Positions 2,715 through 64,000 of a DNA stretch of 64,000 bases are shown here, piece by piece (the first letter of the stretch is position 1; the number at the start of each line of letters is the position of its first letter). The DNA is from a virus, in IMG/VR virus record IMGVR_UViG_3300044970_002549, positions 1 through 64,000 of that record; one strand, 5' to 3'. Below the pieces are notes generated by a model. That model ran no database searches. It was not told the DNA's origin and saw nothing but the letters and a program-made list of their open reading frames with translations. A program made the translations under genes and the position numbers.

Positions 2715-4107
2715 AGAATGGCTTCGGAATAAGGCAGCAACCTCCGATGCAGCATTTGCCGAATACGTCAGCGGTCTTGTGTTCCCAAAACATTTGCGAG
2801 AAATGGAACAGTTTCTTGATGGCAACGACCGCGGTCTTGTTCTCATGCCACGAGGACACGCCAAAACCACACAGCTGATTCATCGAGCCGCCAGGGTGAT
2901 TGGAGCAACACATGGCAAGGTGCGCATCGGCATTCTGACATCAGTCATGTCTGACGCCCTTGCTCGATCCCGCGCCATTAAGTCCATTATTGAGTCACCG
3001 TACTTTGCTGAAGTATTCCCATGGGCAAGAGAAGGTGTGATCGGGTCAAAATGGACTGACGAAGTGTGGACCGTCAAGGGCGCAAACCTTGGTAAGGACT
3101 CAACCTGCTTTGCCGATGGTCTTGGGTCGATTAAGCCGGGCGCACGACTTGACGTTCTTTTTGCAGACGACATGGTTGGAATGAAGGAGAATGCGACAGC
3201 CGTCCAGCGACAAAAGGCTAGCGAGACCTACTGGCAGGTTGTTGATCCAATGCTTGTTCCTGGAGCCAAGCGTTGGTATATCGGTACTAGATGGCACGAA
3301 GACGATTTTTATGCCGAGTTAATGAGGAAAGAGGTCGCGTTCTACCAGCGACGCGCAGTAGAGGGGGAGAATGTTTTGTGGCCAGAGATGTATACGATGG
3401 CAGACATGGATCAAAAGAAAATGGAGCTTGGTGGTCCCATCTTCATGCTTCAGTTCCAGAACGACGTTACATCAATGGGTGGCAACATTTTCCGATACGA
3501 GTATTTCCAGCGAGTTGACCGCGTTCCAGAAGGGGCTCGACGCCTTGGAGTAGACCTTGCGTCTTCCGCAAGCGAGAGAAGCGACTACACCGCTGCTGTC
3601 GAGGTTCTTGAGGATGACCAGCACAACCTTTATATTGTCGGCTGCTGGAAGGCCAGGCTGCAAGAGGGGCATAAGGCGTGGCTTACCGGATACGACAACT
3701 TCGGCTCTATGGTGCAGGACAGTGGCCCACGCTTGCTTTGGCCGCAGCGACTTGTTGGCGTCAGGGGACTAGACATGGAACTTGATTCACCTAGATTTTT
3801 CGAGTCAGTGAATATTGAGGCAGTGCAGCATCAAAGCACATTTGTCAGGGAAATCCTGTCATCAACAAAGCTTCCTGCCCGTGCCATTAGGCCAGACAGG
3901 GATAAGGTGACTCGATCCCGCGCACTTTCAGCCCGGTATGAGGCTGGCAAAGTGTTTCATGTTAATGGCGCACCTGGAATTGAAGACCTTGAATCAAACA
4001 TGTTGGCCTTCCCTAACGGTAGTCACGACGACCTGGTTGATGCGCTTGTGTACGCCGCCGATCTCGGCGGAGACGGCTTCTATTTCACCTCAGCTAAGAG
4101 GTATTGA
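2680..4107 (+). CDS. terL: Terminase large subunit
   Basis: Walker A MPRGHAKTT, Walker B VLFADD, GTRWHEDD, RNase H-like GVDLA and C-terminal HDDLVDALVYA. Confidence 0.95.
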   Translation: MSQAQTVNQKYREWLRNKAATSDAAFAEYVSGLVFPKHLREMEQFLDGNDRGLVLMPRGHAKTTQLIHRAARVIGATHGKVRIGILTSVMSDALARSRAIKSIIESPYFAEVFPWAREGVIGSKWTDEVWTVKGANLGKDSTCFADGLGSIKPGARLDVLFADDMVGMKENATAVQRQKASETYWQVVDPMLVPGAKRWYIGTRWHEDDFYAELMRKEVAFYQRRAVEGENVLWPEMYTMADMDQKKMELGGPIFMLQFQNDVTSMGGNIFRYEYFQRVDRVPEGARRLGVDLASSASERSDYTAAVEVLEDDQHNLYIVGCWKARLQEGHKAWLTGYDNFGSMVQDSGPRLLWPQRLVGVRGLDMELDSPRFFESVNIEAVQHQSTFVREILSSTKLPARAIRPDRDKVTRSRALSARYEAGKVFHVNGAPGIEDLESNMLAFPNGSHDDLVDALVYAADLGGDGFYFTSAKRY

Positions 4108-49926: not shown

Positions 49927-50622
49927 GTGGCAAAGAATGAAGTAACTTTCAATATTAAGGCCGCAGAGAACAACTTGCGTTCTGTCCGGAAGACCCTGCA
50001 GGAGTCAGTTGATCACCTGAACCCAACCTTCCAGGCAGTAGCCGTACAAATCGTCCAGAATGCCGTCTACGGCGGCCCAGGAAGCCTTGCTGGGATGGCA
50101 TCCGATCTGGCCCCAGTTGACACTGGAGCGCTTCGTGCTGGGCTTGCATCACCCAATTCCAACGAAGAATTTGACAAGGGCCGACAGTCGCAGAGCGTAT
50201 TCTCCGTATCGCCAGTCGGCAAGGGTGGCGTGCAGTATGTCGGCGTCACCTACGGCACCGACCCAACAAGAGACGACGGTGAGGGCTATGCGCAATACGT
50301 GCAGACTGATTACCTGTCTGCACCTGCCGCAAAATTCCGAAGTACCATGGGGGCTATTGGTACGGAAATATCTCGAGCCATTGCCTCGGTTATCGCAGCA
50401 AACATTCGAGTTGCAGCGTCAACCTCTGGGGCCTACGTAACAGCAAAAACCCGCTTGAGTCCAACAAGTGTGCTCCGACTTATTAGGAAGTTCGGTTCTG
50501 CACCTATTGAGACTACAAGCGGGAGAGGCTATGGGTACCGCAAGCTCGCTGCTATGCCGCGGTCCCAGTACCTCAAGATTATGCGTCAACGACGCTATCT
50601 TGCCAGAAAGAGATCTAGCTAA
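49927..50622 (+). CDS. HK97 gp10-like neck/tail-completion protein
   Basis: APVDTGALR, YAQYV. Confidence 0.65.
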   Translation: MAKNEVTFNIKAAENNLRSVRKTLQESVDHLNPTFQAVAVQIVQNAVYGGPGSLAGMASDLAPVDTGALRAGLASPNSNEEFDKGRQSQSVFSVSPVGKGGVQYVGVTYGTDPTRDDGEGYAQYVQTDYLSAPAAKFRSTMGAIGTEISRAIASVIAANIRVAASTSGAYVTAKTRLSPTSVLRLIRKFGSAPIETTSGRGYGYRKLAAMPRSQYLKIMRQRRYLARKRSS

Positions 50623-51883
50623 GTCGAATCAGATACTCAGCAGTTACCCCTTCTGTGTGCTGGAACAACAGCCATTGGCATGGCTCGCCTGCTGATGCAA
50701 GCTGCTCCTGAGCGTAGGTGTTCGAGCTTTCGGTCGATCCTCCACTCCAGTGGGTGATTCCATTAAGATACATACGGGTTGGCGTATGGAAGTGCCCGGC
50801 CGCGCTGTAGTCAAACCGCGCAACAGTCATATTCCAGCCCTGAAGCTTCTTGCCAAACCCATACCAAGGGAAGCCAGCAAAACCGCCGCCAACCTGGTCC
50901 CCATGGAATAGGAACCAAGTCTTTCCCTTAACCTCGTCGGCTGCAAACCATGCTCGCTCGCCCTCTGCCAGGGTTTCCACCCATTCGACATTTGTCTGCT
51001 CTTTAAGGAGCATTGAGGCGATTCGATACATCATTGCGTCCGCATTGCTTTCTGGGTGGAATGTTCCTTTTCGGCCAAGTCGACCGTGGTTTCCAATAAC
51101 ACCAACAACCTTGATCTTCTCAAACTCGCCGGAAAGCTTCCTGACTAAATTTGCAAGAATCTCACCGCCGTGGAAAATCTGGTTATACAGCGACGCATCA
51201 ACAAGATGAGCCTGGCCTGGGAAGATGTCCTCACCCTCAATAAGGTCGCCAAGAAGATAAATTCTTAGCTCTCTTACTGGATGCGCCTTGCGCTGAATGT
51301 CGACAAGCTTTTGCACCTTATCGGACAGCTGCCTGATTCGATCCGCGCAGACCTCGGAGCTATAGGTTGGAGTGATCTTACCGAGCTGCCAGTCAGAAAG
51401 CAGCAAGATTGCAGTTTCGTCATCGGCTTTTCGGTTGTCGTGCTTTGGTGGCTTCACGGGCTCAATGTGGATCGCCGCAGCCGCCTCTCTGGCCGCTTGA
51501 TACACGGCCTCGATTAGTTCCTGCTGCTCACGATCCTTGTCGTCGAGCTTTCGCAAAGCTTTTCGATGTGCTGCCTTTAGGCGCTCAATTTCAGATGTGG
51601 CCTCGTAGGCGGCGTTCTCGCGCTCCGCGATTGCGCTAACGATATCTGGGGTCATCCCCGAGCTGATCTTGTCTCGCAAGGACCCAGGAACTGTGAAGGG
51701 CTTCTTTCCATTGTTGATGCGCTTATCAACAAATGATGTTTTCCCTCGAAGCAAGTTGTTTCTCATGATTCGCCATGAGTCTTTGCTTCGGTCTGGGTAT
51801 GATGCGTAAAACGCTTCATACTCCATATTGACTGCATCCTGTTTTTCCTGCGCGGTCCATGACCGCACGGAGAACTGTGGCAT
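50615..51883 (-). CDS. Calcineurin-like metallophosphoesterase with N-terminal coiled coil
   Basis: LSDWQLG, GDLIEG, GNHGR, FHGD, GHFH. Confidence 0.85.
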   Translation of the reverse strand: MPQFSVRSWTAQEKQDAVNMEYEAFYASYPDRSKDSWRIMRNNLLRGKTSFVDKRINNGKKPFTVPGSLRDKISSGMTPDIVSAIAERENAAYEATSEIERLKAAHRKALRKLDDKDREQQELIEAVYQAAREAAAAIHIEPVKPPKHDNRKADDETAILLLSDWQLGKITPTYSSEVCADRIRQLSDKVQKLVDIQRKAHPVRELRIYLLGDLIEGEDIFPGQAHLVDASLYNQIFHGGEILANLVRKLSGEFEKIKVVGVIGNHGRLGRKGTFHPESNADAMMYRIASMLLKEQTNVEWVETLAEGERAWFAADEVKGKTWFLFHGDQVGGGFAGFPWYGFGKKLQGWNMTVARFDYSAAGHFHTPTRMYLNGITHWSGGSTESSNTYAQEQLASAGEPCQWLLFQHTEGVTAEYLIRLS

Positions 51884-54221: not shown

Positions 54222-54515
54222 ATGGCTAGCCTTAATGAAGTGCGCCCAACGCGCGTGCTTACCCTTAATGACCTCGCTGACATCGAGGATAAGTTCGGAG
54301 GTCTTGACAAAGTTGACCTTACGAAGTTCACTGTACTTCGCTACATCTTGTGGCTCGTTCTTAAGAAGGACGACGTGAAGCTTGATGAGCGAACTGTTGG
54401 TGACCAGTTTTCGCTGGACACCATGCGGGAAGAGATCGACAAGGTACTTCGCTCTAGCGGTTTGATCGGGGCTGCCGATGAAGAAGGCGCTTCGGGAAAA
54501 GCAGCGGGGGCGTAA
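54222..54515 (+). CDS. Tail assembly chaperone (gpG-like)
   Basis: LTLNDLADIEDKFG; slippery G GGA AAA near the 3' end. Confidence 0.8.
   Translation: MASLNEVRPTRVLTLNDLADIEDKFGGLDKVDLTKFTVLRYILWLVLKKDDVKLDERTVGDQFSLDTMREEIDKVLRSSGLIGAADEEGASGKAAGA
54494..54500 (+). other. Programmed -1 ribosomal frameshift site GGGAAAA
   Basis: X XXY YYZ in the correct phase; the -1 frame is open and continuous with 54545..54778. Confidence 0.85.
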
Positions 54516-54778
54516 GCTGGGGAGAGATTGATTGGGGTTCAATCATGGCATCGTATGCAGATGCCTTTGGTTACACTCCAACGGAGTTCATGCAACTGAC
54601 GCTCCCACAGCTTAACGCATACGCAAAGTACGTTGAGAAGCGAGACGAGCAAATGAAGAGCGAATCAAAGTCAACCCCCGCAAAGAACAAGGCAAAGTTT
54701 GCTGAAGGCAAGTCAGGGATGAAAACAATTCAGTCCCTTGATCACCTGGCCCAAGTGTTTGGAAAACCAGGAGCATAA
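54497..54778 (+). CDS. Tail assembly chaperone gpGT C-terminal part (-1 frame)
   Basis: KSSGGVSWGEIDWGSIMASYADAFGYTPTEFMQLTLPQL. Confidence 0.78.
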   Translation, partial: KSSGGVSWGEIDWGSIMASYADAFGYTPTEFMQLTLPQLNAYAKYVEKRDEQMKSESKSTPAKNKAKFAEGKSGMKTIQSLDHLAQVFGKPGA

Positions 54779-54793
54779 GTAGGGGGAACGCAA

Positions 54794-57700
54794 GTGGCGG
54801 AAGAAAATGTCGCAAGAGTTGGCATAGCTCTTGATTCTGCCGCATTCCAGGACGGGGTATCCCGCGCCCTTCGTGACATCGATCGACTCCTCAGCGGACT
54901 CAAGACACTACAGAACGCCAACAGGCAACTCTCCCTTGCTTCTGGAGGCGGACTCTTCGGCACCGGTTCTAGGTCCCCCGTTGCCAACTTTGCCCGAGAC
55001 ATAAATCGGACAGCGATACCGGCCCTGCGCGATATGGAACGCAATGCGCTCCGTGTTGGCGGGGCCGTTCGCCGTTCCATGACAGAAATGTCCAGAATGG
55101 CATCTGTAGCAGAGCAGGCGCAAGTTCGGCAAGAGCGAGCGATCCTTGCCGGGGAGCGTCGAGCAATGAGTTCCCGCCGAGGTCGCGGCGGCAGATATCG
55201 GGACGAAGGGCTTTTTGGTGCAGTCCCTGCAGATCCTCGAGTTGGATCATTCGAAGACCCGCGCAGCCCGTCAGGAAAGATTGCCGCAAGATACGTCCTG
55301 CGCACCCTAGAAGAACTCATTACATCAGAGGCAGAAAGCTACCCGCGCATCATGCAACCTCGCCCCAGGGGTGGAGCTGGTCGGCAGGCAAGCGTTGGCT
55401 CAGAGCAAACTGTTTCTAGCGTCGCAAGCAAGTTTGCCCCGGGTCGAATCTTTAACACGTCAACAAACCTAGAAGAGGGACTCCCAGTTACCATCGTTGG
55501 TCCTGGCGGGGAAAAGTTTGTTTTGTCAGGGAATGGTCGCGTCATGGGCATGCGTCGCCTCTCTCAACAGCAGCAAGGACGAGTTCCAATTGTTTCTGCA
55601 GTAGAGACATTTGTTGCTGGAAACCCGTCCCTGTTCGGCGGCGCTGAGGGCGTAGAGGAAACGCTTCGACAGGTTGCAAAAATTGCCAAAGCCAAGCAAA
55701 CGCCGATACTTACTCGTGAGCTCACACAAACCATCGAGCAGATTGGCGCGCGAGAAGCCGGGAAACTTGGGCTTGGGCTAAACACTCGCACAGCGATGTC
55801 AGAAGCCGAGATGGCAATGGCCGTATCAAAGCTTTTGCAGCGCCCACCGACTGGCCTTGCAAAGGGAACGCCAGGAAAAGTGCTGTCAGGTGGTGGAGAA
55901 CCTGTTCGTGAGTTTATTAGCCAAGTACTGGAAGTTCTTCCACCGCAGGTAGTTAGGTCACGATATCAAACTAGTTCTGGTGAATCAAATAAGCAGTTCC
56001 AACAGCTCCTAGAGGGCGTTGCAATGTCGTCTGCGTACGGAAGCAACCCTGCGACAGAGGCAATGATCACTCGCCTTCTTGAAGGAGGTAAGACTGGCTT
56101 GCCTCCGGCTCTTTCTGGAGCGCTTCGGAAAAATCTCGGACCGCAACTAACTCTGCGTGGTCGAATCGCTTCCGGCGAAATCCCTGCAGAGATGGACCCA
56201 ATTTACAACAACCTCCCCCAGGCAATCGAGCTATTGACCCAGGCTCAAAAGTCATACGGTCCGCGGTTTATGGCCGAACAGATTGGAACGCAGCAAGGCA
56301 TGGAGCCCGCATCACCACAGGCTCTTAAGCTTGCTCAGGCCATGCGCAAGGCTGGAACAGCCGGCCTTCCAGCATTCTTTGAGTCTATTGCCCAGTATGG
56401 AAAGAGGGCAGTGTCTGCTACTGCGCCAACGCTAGGACTTGATCCCGGAGCATTTGTTGCTGACCCAGAGGCGGCAATTCGCATTGCATCCGAAGCGGCC
56501 TCCAAATTTGCATCACACAAGGGACCAAAGACAGAGGGCATCCTCTCGTCAATTGTCGAGGCTGCCATTCGAGAGTTTGCAACACCAGAAGTAATTCAGC
56601 CGGTTGCCAAAAAGGCGGCAAAAGGAGCAGCTGCACGAACCGTTGAAAAGGCAGTCGAAACAAAGGTTGAGCAGGTTGCCGAGGCAGTCGCTGAGGCGGT
56701 TACTGACCCAAGAGCCACTAGCATGCGACGACCAGAGTCTGAGCGCTTCTTCAAGGTAAATCCCCGAGCCATCGGCACAGCCGCAGGATCAGAAAGGGCC
56801 CGTTCAGGAGGATACGTCCCATACGGCGAGGCTTCCGAAGCACAGCGTGGCAAGTACAACATGACGCTTCTTGGAGGGTATGCAGAGCTAGAAAAGCAAT
56901 ACGAAGAGGCGCAAAAAGAAGCTGAATACATGAAGGAAAACTTTGCCACTAGGCCAGGGGCCACTCCACACGCTTCAGTCCAGAAAGCAGAAGCACTGCG
57001 AGCAAAGCTTACCGAGCTAAGAGGTGTCATGATTGAGCGCGGCCTTCATAAGCCAACTATGGCAGAGCAAATTGCAGAGCTATTCACCGGCCCTTCCTCA
57101 TCATCGTCTGGCCTGACCCCAACCAGAACCTCCGGAGGCGGGGGTGGCGGTGGAGGCGGGGGACGTCGACGAGGGCCTTCTGGCGGTGGCGGAGGCGGGG
57201 AGGAAGAGGAGAAGACCCCTAAGTGGATTCAGAGTTTCCAGGGGGCTCTAGCTGCATCCGGGCTTGACCCTCAAACTTTAAAGTACATGACCTCTGGGTT
57301 CAAGTTTGGCGCCACCCAGGCTGCCATTGAACCGGGTCTTTTTTCGCAGTCACGCGCATCTCTTGAGGCACTTCAGCAATTCGCTGCAGTCCGCCAGCTC
57401 AGCATGGTTCAGATGTCTCGTGGGCTTGTTGGTAGCGGAGCAAATGGTTTCTGGCAGCCACAAGAGGCTGGTGAACGTGGTGGCATTGCTCTTGGTGGAT
57501 TTGGTGCGAGGACTGCCGCCCCACTCCTAAGGACAATGATTCACGAAATAGCACACGGCACATTCGAGTCCCTGGTTGCCGGCGGGTACAAGCCTCAGAC
57601 GAAAGTAGAGATGTATGGGCCAAAGGGAGAAGCGCTTGGCCCGGTAAATGCGCGTCAAATGCTTGCGCCATTCAAAGAAACAACGGCCAGCGGACACGTC

Positions 57701-60700
57701 GATCCAGCATTCTATCGATCTCAGGCAATGATCAGCAAGGCTGGCGGCGCGTTACTTCCGCAGCTTGCATTTCACAGGATGGTCGAAGAGGTCATGCCGC
57801 AGGGACATCTTACCGAGGGAATTGGGTTGGGCAAATTCTCGCAGCTGCTCACCCCGCACCTTAAAGAGTTTGCATCTCCCGAGCAGTCAACAGCAGCAGA
57901 AGAGTTTGTCAAGTTCTCCGCACGCATCATGGAAGCGACAAACAACTTTACTCAGGGCGGTATCGGAAAGGGTGGCGCGCTTAGCGTTCTCTCGGAAGGC
58001 CTGCAGCAGCTTGGCGCATCAAGCAAGGCGTTCCCTTCAACATTCTTCCTTGAGGCTGCATCTGTTGTAGGAAATACCCTAAAGAACCTCGAGGCCGGAG
58101 ACCCGGATAACCTGACCAAGGTTGCAAAGTCGCTCATGAATGCTGCAGCCCTTACCATTGGCGAGGGGGAATTCAGGCCTGGCGTAGCAGTTGCGTCAAA
58201 TGCAGCAAAAGAAGTCGCAAACTACCTTGCTTCAGCAAGCATTGAAGAGAAGGCGGCAATTGCGCTTGGGGCAAACCCGAAACTTCTTGGAGACACTTCA
58301 TTTAACCCTGGCAACGAAGGGCATGTCCAGAAGGTTAACGAGGCAATTGCAAACATTTCTCGTGTCGCATCTGAAACATCACGCGGCGTTGCCGTAGCCC
58401 GATTCGTTGGCGGACAGAGAGTCGAGACCCCATACGCTGCGGCCGCAGGACTTCTCGGTCCGGCTGCGCCTGGAACGCTTGCCGCACAAACGTCTCCACT
58501 CCAGTTCCCAGGAGGAAGCCTTGCGCAAAGAATGGCTTACTACGGGTCTCAATCAACAGGCCAGCGCGGCATGGAAAGTGCAATCCCTGGAGCGTATCTG
58601 CGTGCCAAGGAAGGACAATTTATTGGAATGGGGCCAGCCTACCAGCAGGCATATGCTTCCGCCCGAAATCGCCAAGAGCTAGAAGCGGGCATCAAATCAT
58701 CTGCTAAAAGCGAATACGTTCAATCTGCCAACGCGGCCATGCGGTATGCCGAGGTGCAAAGCCGACTAAACCTGATTGTCCAAAATGGCAATGTCAACTT
58801 CTCGCAGCTTTCCAGAGTCCTAACAGACGCAGGCACTGGATTCACCGTCTCCGCAGCAAATGCGCTCAAGTTTGCTGCCGCCATTGCTGTTGGCCAGCAA
58901 ATTACCGGCTCGATTGTTGGCGTATTTGAACATCTTAAGGGTGGCATCCTTGGATTCAACGCAATGCTTGAGTCTGCGAGCGTCGGCTTTACAACGTTGT
59001 TCAAGAATGCGGGACGGTCCGTACGAGACGCTGAGTCAGAAACAGCGAAAACAATCACCACGCTTCGAGAATTTGCCAACGTTACCAACTTCCGATTCGG
59101 AGACCTGGAGACTGCCGCCCTGCGAATGCAAGCGTTCGGATTTGAGGTCGACACCGCAAGGGCGGCGCTTAAAAAGCAAATGCCAGTTCTCTATGAGGTA
59201 AATAACGTTCTCGAGAGAAACGCAACTGGCCTCAAGACCTTCCGTGGGGCACTTGTAAACATCGGAGATGCGGTAGCGGCACTTGGCGGAGAAGACGACA
59301 AGCTTCGAAGAATTACGTACGCACTCGGGCAAATGAACTCTGCTGGTCGCGTATACCAGAACGACATGATGCAGCTGGCAAACGCCGGTATCGCTGGATA
59401 CGACATTCTCGCCAAGGCTCTTTTGCAAGAGATTTCCGCAAGCCCAGAACTAAAGAAGGCCAACGCCGCAATCTACAACAAGCTGATGAATCCAGAGACT
59501 GCGGTTGAAGAGGTCCGAAGACTCGCCAAGAGCGGACGACTGTTTGGACCAGGAGCTGTTCAAGCAATCCTGAAGGGCCTCGAGGAGAGGTACGGCGGGG
59601 GAATGAAAGCGTTCTCAAGAACATTCCAGGGAGCGATGACGACAGTTGCCGACACCTCCCAGTCGCTTGTAGCAACTGCCTTCAACCCACTGTTCTCCGT
59701 TGTCCGCGACCTTACGATTCAGCTTGCTGACTTCCTGCAGCAGCCAGAAGCTGAGGCCGGGGCAAAGAATCTTGCAAAGGCAGTTCTTAGCGTTTCTAAT
59801 GCAATTAGGACAGGGCTCCCATCTGCACTCTCGACCGCAGATAAGATTCTATCGTCTATTACTGGGACATTTGGCAGTCTTGCAGGAAGCGCTGCTGAGG
59901 GGACAAGCAGCCTTGGCGGGTTTGTTAGAAACACCATTAAGGGTCTTTCAACTTTCGGTGATGTTCTAGAAAACTCAGTCATTCGCAAATTTGGATCAGC
60001 TCTTGTTGTGGCCAAGCTTTTGTTTGGATTTATTGCCGCAAACCCCCTTCTTGCAACGCTGACAGCCGGGACTGCCGGAATCGGGTTCCTTGCCACAGCA
60101 ATCCAAGAAAATCAGTTTGGGCTTGGAACTGCATTCCAAAAGATAGCTGTCCCGCTTGAGCAGACCCTTGAAAACCTTGGCAACAATATTATGCCAAGCC
60201 TTTCTAATACGCTTACAGCTGCCGCAGGAGTAATTGGCGCAACCATCGCATCCATCATGACGGCAATCTCCCCGTTGCTAGAAATTATTTTGAATGTATT
60301 GAATATTGTAACTTCTGCCGTAAAGCCATTCTCTTCGGTCCTTGGAGTTGCTCTTGCGCTATTTATTGGAAAGAAAGTACTAATAGACGGAGTGGCGTCA
60401 GCAATGGCCAGATTTGCAATGTTCACCGAGAAAGCTGCTGGATCCGTCGACAACATGAAAATGAAGTGGTTTGCCGGTCGGGAACTTCAGGCATTTGAGC
60501 GATTCGGAAACACGACAATGGGCGCTCAGATGGTTGCCCCTCAATACAACAAGCAGGGTGAGCTGACCCAGGCTGGAAAGGTCCAATTCGGTCAATTTGG
60601 TGGGGCCGGAATGGGATACAGCAGTCCACTTCTTTACAAGATTTTCATGGCCCAGATGAAGGAAATGGCTGGCGCGCAAGGATTTGAGTTCCAAAATCTT

Positions 60701-63700
60701 GCCGGCGATCCAACTGGCGCAGAGAAGTTGACGCTGGAGACCACGCCGATTGCCAAGGAGCAGGCTCTTTCGGCGCTTTCATGGCTTAAGGGGCTAAAAA
60801 CCAGCGATCCAGAAAAGTATAAAGAAACACTTGCAGCCGCTACGCCTTCAGAGCGACTTCAGCTTGAGGAGGCAATGAATGCCGGGCTTAGAACTGTTGT
60901 TTCTGGGCTTCGTGCGTTTAAGGCAGAGCTGGACAAACTTCCAACGGTTATGCAGAAGCTTGGCTATATTGGCCAAATTGCTTTTGACAAGATCGGCACA
61001 CTTGCGGGAGCGGCTACTGGTCTTGGCCTGACGCTATCGACTCTTGGCGGTCTGATGAATAATGAGGCCCTTGTGGGCTTTGGATCAACTCTCGCCACGG
61101 TGGGAATTGCAACATCTGGTCTTGTGATGACATTTACTCAGCTTAAGCAGGCCCTTGGGCCGTATGGCTTCGCCGGTGCAATTGGCGGCGCCATTTCGGC
61201 CCTCGGTCTCCTTGCAGCCGCTGCATACGAAGATCATAAAACCAAGCAGGACGATGCAAAGTCAGCCCTAAGCGATCTCGGGTCGCTCCAGTCAATCATT
61301 GGGCCAGATGCACTGCAGGCCGAATACGGAAATTTGATTGAAGGGCTATCCCGCTCATATGAGCTTGGGTTCGACCTGACGGACGAGCAAAAGGCATCTC
61401 TTGCCGCCGCGAGGGAAAGACTTGAGGTCCTTAGGGCCCAGATCCGCGAAGACAGAATGGAAAACTACACTGGCAAGGGGTCTGCCAGGTACACAATGGA
61501 GAAAAATAAAGAGACAATCAGGAACTACGCAATCCGAGGATACACGCCGGAGCAGATCGCTGAATTTACCGGATTGAATCTTGACTATGTAAAAAACCTG
61601 TTCGAGAACATGGTTCAGGACGGCAGCGAAGCTGGGCAGGAATACATCAAGATTCTTACGCAGCAACTTGACGCAACGGGGGAGGCGCTGCAGAAAGCCA
61701 AGGACATTCTTGAAAAGGCCACAGAGGCATTCGAGCGTCCGCTCAACCGCCTTATGTCCAGGGTGCAGACGCTTATTTCTGAGCTATTTGCCGACGAGAA
61801 GGAAAAGCTTCAGGAGGAGAGCAGAACTGCGCTTGGAAATATTGAGGTTCTTTACAACGGGGAAATGATTCGGCTTGGGGTTCTTGAGGAGCAGCACAGG
61901 ATTCTCACTGAGCAGCGCCAAGAGATGGAGGAGATGCAGCGACTGGAGGACCTTAGAACCAAGGCATCTGAGGCCGCCCTTGAGATGTTCGATGCTGGCA
62001 CTGACCCGCTTGAACGCGCCAGGGCAGCCAGGGACGCAGCAAGAGACCTGTTTTCTGAGTCCGAACAGATTCGCCTTGACCAGATGGGCAAAACTATTGA
62101 AGAGGCAAAAACTAGCGTGCCGTATATGGCCACATCTGAGGACTATGACCTTCGCATCAAGGCGCTTGAGGTTGATCAGCAGGAGCGACAGCGCGTTTTG
62201 ACCGAGACAATCGACGACCTAATGCGCAAAGTTAAGAACGGAAAGCTTAGCGCCGAAGAGGCCAAGAAGATGCTGCAAGATGCGTTTGCGGACACCGGCC
62301 TTGACCTTGCAGTTGCTTCCGCGCAAGGATACGACTTCATGGAGCACTTCTCATCTGGGTTCATGGATGCGCTTCAGAAGAACATTGATTTGACATTTAA
62401 GCGCCTCCCTGCGCTTATCTCAGCCGCCGTCAGGGCACTCCGTGAGGATGCTGCATATAAGAAGGCCCAGGCCGAGCTTTCTGAAATCCTTAACCCAACA
62501 CCTCTCGACAAAAATATTTCAGGTGCCGAGATGGCTGCGGAGCAAAAAAGATTAATCGAGCGAGCAAAGAGAACGCTTCAGGCGTTGCAGCTTGCTGAAA
62601 ACGTCCCAGGACAAACCGCAGAACAAAAAAAGGCACTCACTGGACAGATGTCATCAATTGCAATGTATATCAGAAAATTGGAGAAAAATCCATTTGCGGC
62701 AAACCTTAATTACTCGGAATCTGAAAAAACACTGCTCACCGAAAACTTTGGAAATCAGACCAACGCCGCGCTAGGCAAGCTTTTTGCCCTGTTTGGATAC
62801 GACACAGTTCTGCAGTGGGTGTTTGGTGGGGTCCCAATGGCATCTCGCCCCGGGAACATTAACCCCAGGGCATCTGGGGGCCCAGTTGGTGCCGGAACCT
62901 ACATGGTCGGAGAGCGCGGACCAGAGATGCTTCAGATGTTCCCGAATGGCGGCGGCTATGTTGTGCCTAACCACAAGCTCCCCTCACACATGCGATCTTC
63001 TGCTGCTGCCCTTGGCGGTGGAGTTATGGGCCGTGCGTGGGGTGGCGGCGTAGGCATCACCAACCCAGAAGTCCCAGTCGGCCGAAGCACCCTGCAAACA
63101 CCTCTAACTGACATCGCCAACATCGTTGGCGGAAATGTGCAAAGAATCCGCCCTGCAGCATTCACAAGAACAGTCACCTATGATTTCCCATGGGGCAAAA
63201 TTGTCATTGACCGATCTATTCATGATGATGTAGTTAGCCGGTTTCCGATCTCAAAGATGCAGGAATATGCTGAATTTGCAATGTCCTCTGGGCGACCAGG
63301 GACTTTCAGCGAAAAGAATCCTTTTGAGCTTCACCTTACCCCAAGAGTTACTGACAGGGAGGCTGTTGCATTTGCCCAGTCTGATCTTGTTGGCGTTGAG
63401 TGGCACGGGAAAACCGGGCTCAATTTCCCTGACGACGAATCGTTTAGGCAATTGCTTACTCACGAAATCGGGCACTCGGTCATGGAGCGCAGCGCTCCGC
63501 GTGGCCTTCATCCAATTTTCAGGCCGATGCAAGGCATTGTCCCGCCAATGTACAAGAAGATTTTTGGCCTTATGGCCGGTCGAACACAAGGAAATATTGC
63601 TCGCGGCATGGGCCTCAGCGGATGGGACGATAACGCGATAAGTTCAAGCGGATATGGTCAGGAAAGCTGGGCAGAGAGCTACGCAGAGCACTATACAAAT

Positions 63701-64000: not shown

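Follow-up and report, generated by a model that had tools for sequence, protein, structure and literature searches.

The giant tape measure protein (TMP) gene of an uncultured lake-water phage has been analysed here. It begins at position 54794 on the forward strand of a 64,000-nucleotide stretch of the IMG/VR virus record IMGVR_UViG_3300044970_002549, and this whole stretch (the window) makes up the opening 64 kb of a record that has 91,157 bp and is rated as complete by CheckV. The gene product is probably best explained as a tape measure chassis to which two modules have been added, one working on the cell envelope of the host and the other passing into its cytoplasm. As judged by comparison with plain relatives, which have the chassis without them, both extra parts are add-ons. 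The N-terminal addition carries a ddrB-like ParB domain and an invariant HExxH motif, and the C-terminal addition carries a second HExxH motif in a cassette that is exchanged between strains.

Identity of the tape measure gene

The open reading frame starts with GTG and occupies 54794..64000 (+), giving 3,069 amino acids within the window. An earlier note, made on the letters of the window, had described a single long frame continuing beyond it, and the full record bears this out; the frame runs without an in-frame stop to genome position 65443, which amounts to 3,549 amino acids in total, 480 of them past the window. Positions there are given in L002 coordinates, in which 9505 corresponds to genome position 64298 and 10650 to genome position 65443. 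The landmarks of the earlier note were also located where it had placed them, namely ARYVLRTLEELITS at residue 165, the poly-Gly stretch at residues 781-803 (nucleotide about 57134), HEIAH at residue 917 (nucleotide 57542), GGPV..VGERGPE at residues 2695-2711 (nucleotide 62876), HEIGH at residue 2890 (nucleotide 63461) and SGYGQESWAESYAE at about residue 2951. An independent lake-metagenome assembly, about 97.5% identical, spans L002:6600-10650 on two overlapping contigs with substitutions only and no insertions or deletions, and this span comprises the C-terminal part of the coiled coil, both C-terminal motifs, the cassette and the end of the frame. Three more runs from lake water contain exact fragments of the gene, and an assembly artefact can therefore be discounted as the source of the long frame.

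The protein lies directly after a lambda-type frameshift pair of tail assembly chaperones (G/GT; 54222..54778, +), as read directly from the sequence, and is for this reason identified as the TMP. The pair ends 16 nucleotides before the TMP start; its 97-residue frame (54222-54515) matches the phrog_2115 tail protein (E 5.6e-5), the slippery sequence G_GGA_AAA is found at 54494-54500 and the overlapping -1 frame is open to 54778. The core domains agree with this identification. PF20155 (TMP_3) at residues 1481-1627 scored 38 bits, below its cut-off of 41, and TIGR02675 at residues 1490-1542 scored 21.0 vs a cut-off of 21.35; PF20155 was matched in all 13 TMPs scanned, i.e. this protein and 12 relatives (best E 1.8e-12), and relatives are named 'tape measure domain-containing protein' in the databases. 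The gene thus is a tail TMP gene, as the earlier note had claimed, and belongs to a freshwater siphovirus; the claim that the tape measure core comes late in the frame holds as well, with the core beginning at about residue 1330-1480.

A chassis of near-constant length with two additions

About 40 related TMP genes were recovered from lake and other freshwater metagenomes. The complete plain relatives of the same core have 1,655-1,926 amino acids, the present gene being about twice their length, and they align to this TMP only from residue about 1330. The shared chassis occupies residues 1330-2694 (58781..62875, +) and comprises the core, with FANVT at residue 1427, hydrophobic segments at residues 1729-1871 and 2093-2146, and a coiled-coil part at residues 2260-2690. 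It is followed by a C-terminal motif, GGPV..YMVGERGPEML..VVPNHKL..RAWGGGVG, at residues 2695-2754 (62876..63055, +). This motif recurs as GGxx..VGExGPE..PNHKL at residues 3470-3493 (L002:10408-10479), near the true C-terminus, so that the second HExxH sits in an insert between the two copies; the single C-terminal motif and terminus of the plain relatives align to the second copy. The copies are 41% identical over 61 residues (E 7e-8) and have just a 14-nucleotide exact DNA repeat in common, which argues for an old duplication. At the other end, a conserved N-terminal segment (residues 1-100; 54794..55093, +) shows about 60-70% mean identity to eight relatives which are otherwise 26-41% identical.

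The distance from FANVT to the first VGERGPE was found to be 1,089-1,348 residues, near 1,280, in plain members and same-clade giants. It is 1,278 residues in this protein, 1,279, 1,216 and 1,089 in the plain relatives L050, L051 and L054, and 1,280, 1,288, 1,304, 1,338, 1,339 and 1,348 in L005, L006, L008, L015, L009 and L011, respectively. Among members, by contrast, 489 to 1,922 residues precede the core, and the insert between the motif copies has 0 to about 1,520. The near-constant distance together with the variable flanks therefore resolves the TMP into a chassis of ~1,900 residues, about 900 additional N-terminal residues and an insert of about 760 residues.

The N-terminal segment, ParB domain and first HExxH all recur in same-clade members, which have 3,231-4,469 amino acids and are 26-69% identical. 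Other giants, of up to 5,429 amino acids, have just the core and the C-terminus in common with this TMP; their long N-terminal parts are unrelated and almost without Pfam domains. A Pfam scan of seven C-terminal inserts of relatives recognised nothing. In the 5,429-residue TMP (L017:1217-10006), the unrelated N-terminal part of 2,930 residues contains a PI3_PI4_kinase match at residues 687-734 (27.9 bits vs a cut-off of 27.1) and two HExxH motifs of its own, at residues 1477 and 2332. The N-terminal slot may therefore carry other cargo in other clades.

A BFVD match, UniProt A0A6J7XJL9 from an uncultured Caudovirales phage, is about 80% identical over the modelled region and evidently represents this gene in a related phage from a lake. 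Its label, 'DdrB-like domain-containing protein', is an automatic annotation, and literature searches turned up no account of its architecture and none that calls it a TMP. A phmmer search of the whole TMP against PDB sequences gave nothing.

The ddrB-like ParB domain

The first recognisable element of the N-terminal addition is a ddrB-like ParB domain with a conserved extension that has no recognised fold (residues 145-600; 55226..56593, +). PF18763 matches residues 162-260 with 33.5 bits in the whole protein and 36.7 bits when the region is taken alone, vs a cut-off of 27.6, and nine of nine relatives match it as well (E <= 1; best 2.5e-11). The family profile aligned to residues 63-173 of P1 DdrB (hhalign Prob 95%, E 3e-8), with YPxxxQPRxR, SGNGR and TPxLxR in register and QPRPR standing opposite QPRDR of DdrB. 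YP..QPR.R, SGN.R and TP..R are invariant in the nine relatives, and SGNGR includes the conserved arginine of the active pocket. The ParB assignment of the earlier note has thus been upheld, and the profile evidence makes a solid case for a true ddrB-like ParB domain and for its homology to the P1 DdrB domain. A poly-Gly/Arg linker (residues 781-803; 57134..57202, +) follows within the poorly conserved stretch of residues 600-900.

The HExxH modules

The TMP contains two HExxH motifs, vs 0.014 expected from its composition (27 histidines in 3,549 residues), and around HExxH the profile of the first module can be aligned with that of the second (hhalign Prob 89%). In the first module (residues 870-1240; 57401..58513, +) the motif residues are H917, E918 and H921, and it lies 671 residues after SGNGR, vs about 760 in DdrB. 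T914, H917, E918, H921, G931, D970, P971, F973 and Q977 are invariant in nine sequences of 23-33% identity, and D970 is a possible third ligand. The AlphaFold2 (AF2) model of residues 870-1240 reached a predicted local distance difference test score (pLDDT) of 68.9 and a predicted template modelling score of 0.71. It places HExxH on a long helix (model residues 39-60) followed by a confident helical bundle, which is compact over residues 1020-1200 (pLDDT about 90); the 37 residues ahead of the motif helix, where a zincin sheet would lie, are of low confidence. PF18818 was absent from the Pfam scans of the TMP, and a word-indexed homologue search with residues 820-1330 against proteins of similar length gave nothing.

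The second HExxH cassette (residues 2790-2979; 63161..63730, +) opens the C-terminal insert and consists of an FPWGK strand, the motif residues H2890, E2891 and H2894, and then WAESY with Glu 2960. The F[DP]WG[DK] strand and the invariant HExxH are present in all of eight cassettes which come from two clades and are 18-23% identical, and the [ED] of a downstream [FYW][AG][ED]x[FY] helix likewise occurs in eight of eight. Family searches gave faint signals. Zincin_1 was matched in two of six cassettes (E 0.06). A match to the zincin-like PDB entry 3e11 (E 0.37), extending from the first strand as far as HExxH, was lost with a wider cassette profile. The cassette of P0037, which aligns with ours at Prob 83%, matched SprT-like with 21.8 bits (cut-off 25.6; E 1.8e-4), and the ESM Atlas neighbours of the cassette fall in clusters carrying ATLF, Mx1 or M90 families (score 0.94). 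ATLF/M34-like PF07737 had no match at E <= 10 in six cassettes or five phage records, scans of the genome with the Pfam ATLF and Zincin_1 profiles found nothing, and neither did a word-indexed search with the cassette alignment against proteins of similar length.

Downstream of the cassette, a hydrophobic Gly-zipper (residues about 3040-3140; + strand, starting at window position 63911) is common to many long TMPs by phmmer, and a Trp-rich domain of about 290 residues (residues 3170-3460; L002:9508-10380, +) has no family match. In an exhaustive phmmer search of residues 2755-3470 the cassette matched nothing outside giant TMPs, almost all matches falling on the Gly-zipper; the exceptions were P0004 and a 959-residue protein with the Trp-rich domain. 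The latter protein, P0030, shares this domain at 41% identity and is without a Pfam domain. Given its position, the Trp-rich domain may act on the cell wall.

Exchange of the C-terminal cassette

The TMP of P0004 is 98-100% identical to the present one over most of residues 517-2600 and about 90% identical by residue 2700; identity is 21-25% within residues 2800-3000 and then 54-73%. P0005 and P0006 are 31-85% identical upstream and 86-100% identical over residues 3200-3549. The cassette type of P0004 is that of P0006 and L005, and our cassette most resembles the one in the distant L015. From this identity pattern the gene is a recombination mosaic in which the HExxH cassette forms an exchangeable unit, with the breakpoints placed at the protein level. 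A DNA pattern for the C-terminal motif had no match among metagenome contigs, and metagenome contigs from other lakes showed the same cassette and no alternative junction. In run X5, a low-depth contig matches only from L002:9505 (genome 64298) onward and before that reads KGAFEIPGRA, of P0004 type; a strain with the other downstream variant seems to co-occur in this run with the 97.5%-identical strain of the phage.

These comparisons bear on two other explanations of the additions. The first is that the extra 1,650 residues are mostly ruler, giving a very long tail of about 0.5 µm, with the ParB-like and HExxH segments being structural or vestigial passengers that are inactive in the host. 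TMP length generally sets tail length, and P23-45, with a TMP of 5,002 residues, has an extremely long tail (PMC10770324); helix makes up much of the present protein by the AF2 model of the first module, and other relatives of 2.7-5.4 thousand residues have N-terminal parts almost without recognisable domains. However, the additions fall outside a chassis which has a constant length in plain relatives, the catalytic-pocket motifs of ParB and both HExxH motifs are invariant despite low overall identity, the modelled part is a compact bundle rather than an extended coil, and the cassette is exchanged as a unit. We therefore regard the ruler explanation as unlikely.

The second, put forward in the earlier note, is that the ParB domain and both HExxH modules are injected counter-defence effectors freed by self-proteolysis, the C-terminal cassette also being cytoplasmic and directed against a host immunity protein. 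Hypervariability of the cassette, seen even between near-identical phages, is what an arms race would give, the ESM Atlas neighbours of the cassette include clusters with protein-cutting zincin families (ATLF, M90), and autoprocessing by the peptidase domains of polyvalent proteins has been proposed by Iyer et al. (PMC5512222), but the Pfam ATLF family is not matched and the fused enzyme of P23-45 remains part of the full-length TMP. This explanation appears quite improbable to us as a whole. Judged by position alone, the C-terminal cassette is more likely to be envelope-penetration gear than an injected anti-defence enzyme, because the cassette and the Gly-zipper sit at the TMP end which would leave the tail first, as in T5 pb2.

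Proposed mechanism

The preferred explanation, a chassis with an envelope module and a cytoplasmic module, can be set out as follows. The chassis consists of the short N-terminal segment, the TMP core, the membrane-type hydrophobic segments, the coiled coil and the VGERGPE..PNHKL motif with the terminal tail. Module 1 (residues about 100-1330) is a DdrB-like unit in which the ParB domain is followed about 670 residues on by the invariant HExxH helix, and module 2 (residues about 2755-3470), between the two motif copies, unites the exchangeable HExxH...E cassette, the Gly-zipper and the Trp-rich domain. At infection the TMP would be expelled through the tail tip, C-terminus first. Module 2 would then work on the cell envelope by cutting the wall or an envelope protein and by inserting into the membrane, as T5 pb2 does, and the ruler part would form the conduit. 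Module 1 would exit last, just ahead of the DNA, and reach the cytoplasmic side, where the ParB domain may protect or prepare the incoming DNA through anti-restriction or through nucleotide or DNA processing; the first HExxH may cut module 1 free. The ejection order, the compartments reached, all enzymatic activities and any processing are proposed by analogy. Delivery of the modules into the recipient cell with the DNA would follow from TMP ejection in other phages, and for the N-terminal module a role as injected cargo is plausible, with the TMP-fused RNA polymerase of P23-45 as precedent.

Several results speak against this mechanism. The AF2 model of the first module had no PDB match with E <= 0.001 in Foldseek, and VIA wide with the same model gave no zincin, returning generic helical bundles on model residues 153-258. 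The first HExxH region and the peptidase of DdrB aligned over 10 columns at Prob 0.7% in hhalign, i.e. without specific similarity. For the second cassette the AF2 model failed (pLDDT 37) and no zincin fold was obtained, and no peptidase family reaches its Pfam cut-off in either module. Megablast and tblastn searches against 50,697 phage records found no homologue in a cultured phage; the exception was a 70-residue match of the C-terminal motif to a Roseobacter phage TMP. In T5 pb2 the hydrophobic stretch precedes the peptidase, whereas here the order is HExxH cassette, Gly-zipper and Trp-rich domain. T5 pb2 also differs in peptidase type, its muralytic motif being M23/LAS-like. What P1 DdrB does is itself poorly defined, and in P23-45 the giant TMP determines a very long tail as well, so that one TMP can be both cargo carrier and ruler (PMC10770324).

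Of the two metallopeptidase domains that the earlier note had claimed, the motifs have thus stood, both being real and invariant, and a zincin fold was obtained for neither; the domain-wise AlphaFold check it had proposed gave a helical bundle for the first module and no usable model for the second. The HExxH motifs might accordingly be something other than peptidase sites, namely metal- or partner-binding helices serving TMP folding, chaperone binding or tail assembly. This would suit the sole usable model, which is all-helical, has no zincin-type sheet before the motif helix and lacks a structural match, and it would suit the sub-threshold family scores. On the other hand, invariance extends to all of His, Glu and His, although a purely metal-binding site would have no use for the catalytic Glu, and a short strand, 7-10 residues and then [RE]TxIHEIxH make up the pattern typical of SprT-, WLM- and Zincin_1-type proteins, families to which weak matches were obtained. 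We therefore consider a non-peptidase role rather unlikely. Real peptidase activity is evenly balanced for the first HExxH module and fairly probable for the second.

If the chassis-and-modules explanation is extended, a two-slot delivery platform in lake siphoviruses that form a widespread group can be speculated, which we rate as possible but still on the doubtful side. The N-slot would hold effectors directed to the cytoplasm and entering shortly before the DNA, here a DdrB-like ParB nuclease or nucleoside triphosphatase together with a protease for its own release. The C-slot would hold envelope cassettes which are bracketed by the duplicated, tip-anchoring VGERGPE..PNHKL motif and exchanged through recombination among co-occurring strains to match different hosts. 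Only the constant segment of ~1,280-1,900 residues would set tail length, which would then be uncoupled from gene length.

TMP gene length is a routine predictor of tail length and of the identity of the gene, a rule which a half-cargo family would break, and such a family would let the nature of the ruler be tested on naturally occurring variants. It would extend the sole experimentally demonstrated case of a TMP-fused enzyme, the P23-45 RNA polymerase, to another class of cargo. As this cargo is linked to the anti-restriction system of P1 (Dar), delivery of early-acting proteins through the tail lumen may be a general route beside the internal proteins packaged in heads. The bracketed, strain-variable C-terminal cassette is a candidate determinant of host range or envelope adaptation, and its defined flanks would ease experimental swapping.

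Composition and neighbouring genes

No cysteine occurs among the 3,549 residues of the TMP, vs 1.24% cysteine in the other predicted proteins of the phage, and cysteine is absent or nearly so (0-2 residues) in the relatives' TMPs of 3,200-5,400 amino acids. Downstream of the TMP lie giant tail genes of 1,730 and 1,114 amino acids (L002:10652-15844 and L002:15841-19185; genome 65445-73978), the second of which ends in a Peptidase_S74 chaperone domain. Both show weak matches to E1_FCCH, a domain of the ubiquitin-activating enzyme (E 6e-5 and 0.014), and are otherwise without annotation except for the Peptidase_S74 end. Upstream, at window positions 50615-51883 (-), the block of head and tail structural genes is interrupted, between its connector and tail genes, by a 421-residue exonuclease gene on the opposite strand (phrog_284, E 6e-46), which resembles an inserted moron-type gene.

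Comparison with known systems

Polyvalent proteins with DdrB-type ParB and peptidase domains (2017), a TMP-fused enzyme (2024) and TMP-borne muralytic peptidases (2006-2008) were already known. Our comparison with plain relatives adds that both extra parts are add-ons to a ruler of constant length, and profile alignment adds a direct link to P1 DdrB. A further addition is the C-terminal slot, in which a zincin-like cassette that varies between strains is flanked by the two copies of the C-terminal motif. As in polyvalent proteins, one virion protein here unites a ParB domain and two HExxH modules, with a swapped cassette, inserts of 0 to about 1,520 residues and a PI3_PI4_kinase match in a relative.

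P1 DdrB is an internal head protein of the Dar anti-restriction system and the prototype of the polyvalent proteins described by Iyer et al. in 2017, for which roles of the ParB domain in anti-restriction and in nucleotide or DNA processing have been proposed (PMC5512222); such roles have also been put forward for the Dar proteins of P1, which are co-ejected with the DNA (PMC12810830). Module 1 resembles DdrB in its homologous ParB domain, in the same order of parts, with HExxH about 670-760 residues after ParB, and in belonging to a late virion protein. DdrB is however a free, head-packed protein of 995 amino acids, whereas here the module is fused into a tail TMP, and the HExxH regions of the two are not detectably related.

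At infection, known TMPs leave the virion by the tail tip, in which the C-terminus of the T5 TMP is located (PMC10038345). The C-terminal part of T5 pb2 has a hydrophobic stretch, a muralytic metallopeptidase and a C-terminal plug, with cleavage between stretch and peptidase, features for which PMC10038345 cites Boulanger et al. 2008. Similarly, the C-terminal part of the present TMP joins a putative membrane-inserting hydrophobic stretch, a metallopeptidase motif and a short terminal segment. On the other hand, the insert here is bracketed by the duplicated C-terminal motif and its cassette is swapped between strains.

The closest parallel for an enzyme delivered by a TMP at infection, as the earlier note had envisaged, is gp96 of Thermus phage P23-45, a TMP of 5,002 amino acids with an N-terminal virion RNA polymerase, which is uncleaved in virions and active early (PMC10770324). 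Both proteins are giant TMPs with a folded N-terminal enzyme module of about 1,000-1,500 residues ahead of the ruler; in gp96 a metallopeptidase and transmembrane segments lie further on, and the polymerase is delivered within the TMP at infection. In case of the lake phage, the cargo is a ddrB-type ParB with an HExxH module and not an RNA polymerase, without sequence similarity to gp96. Its activity and delivery are putative, and it can be compared directly with plain relatives of the same core.

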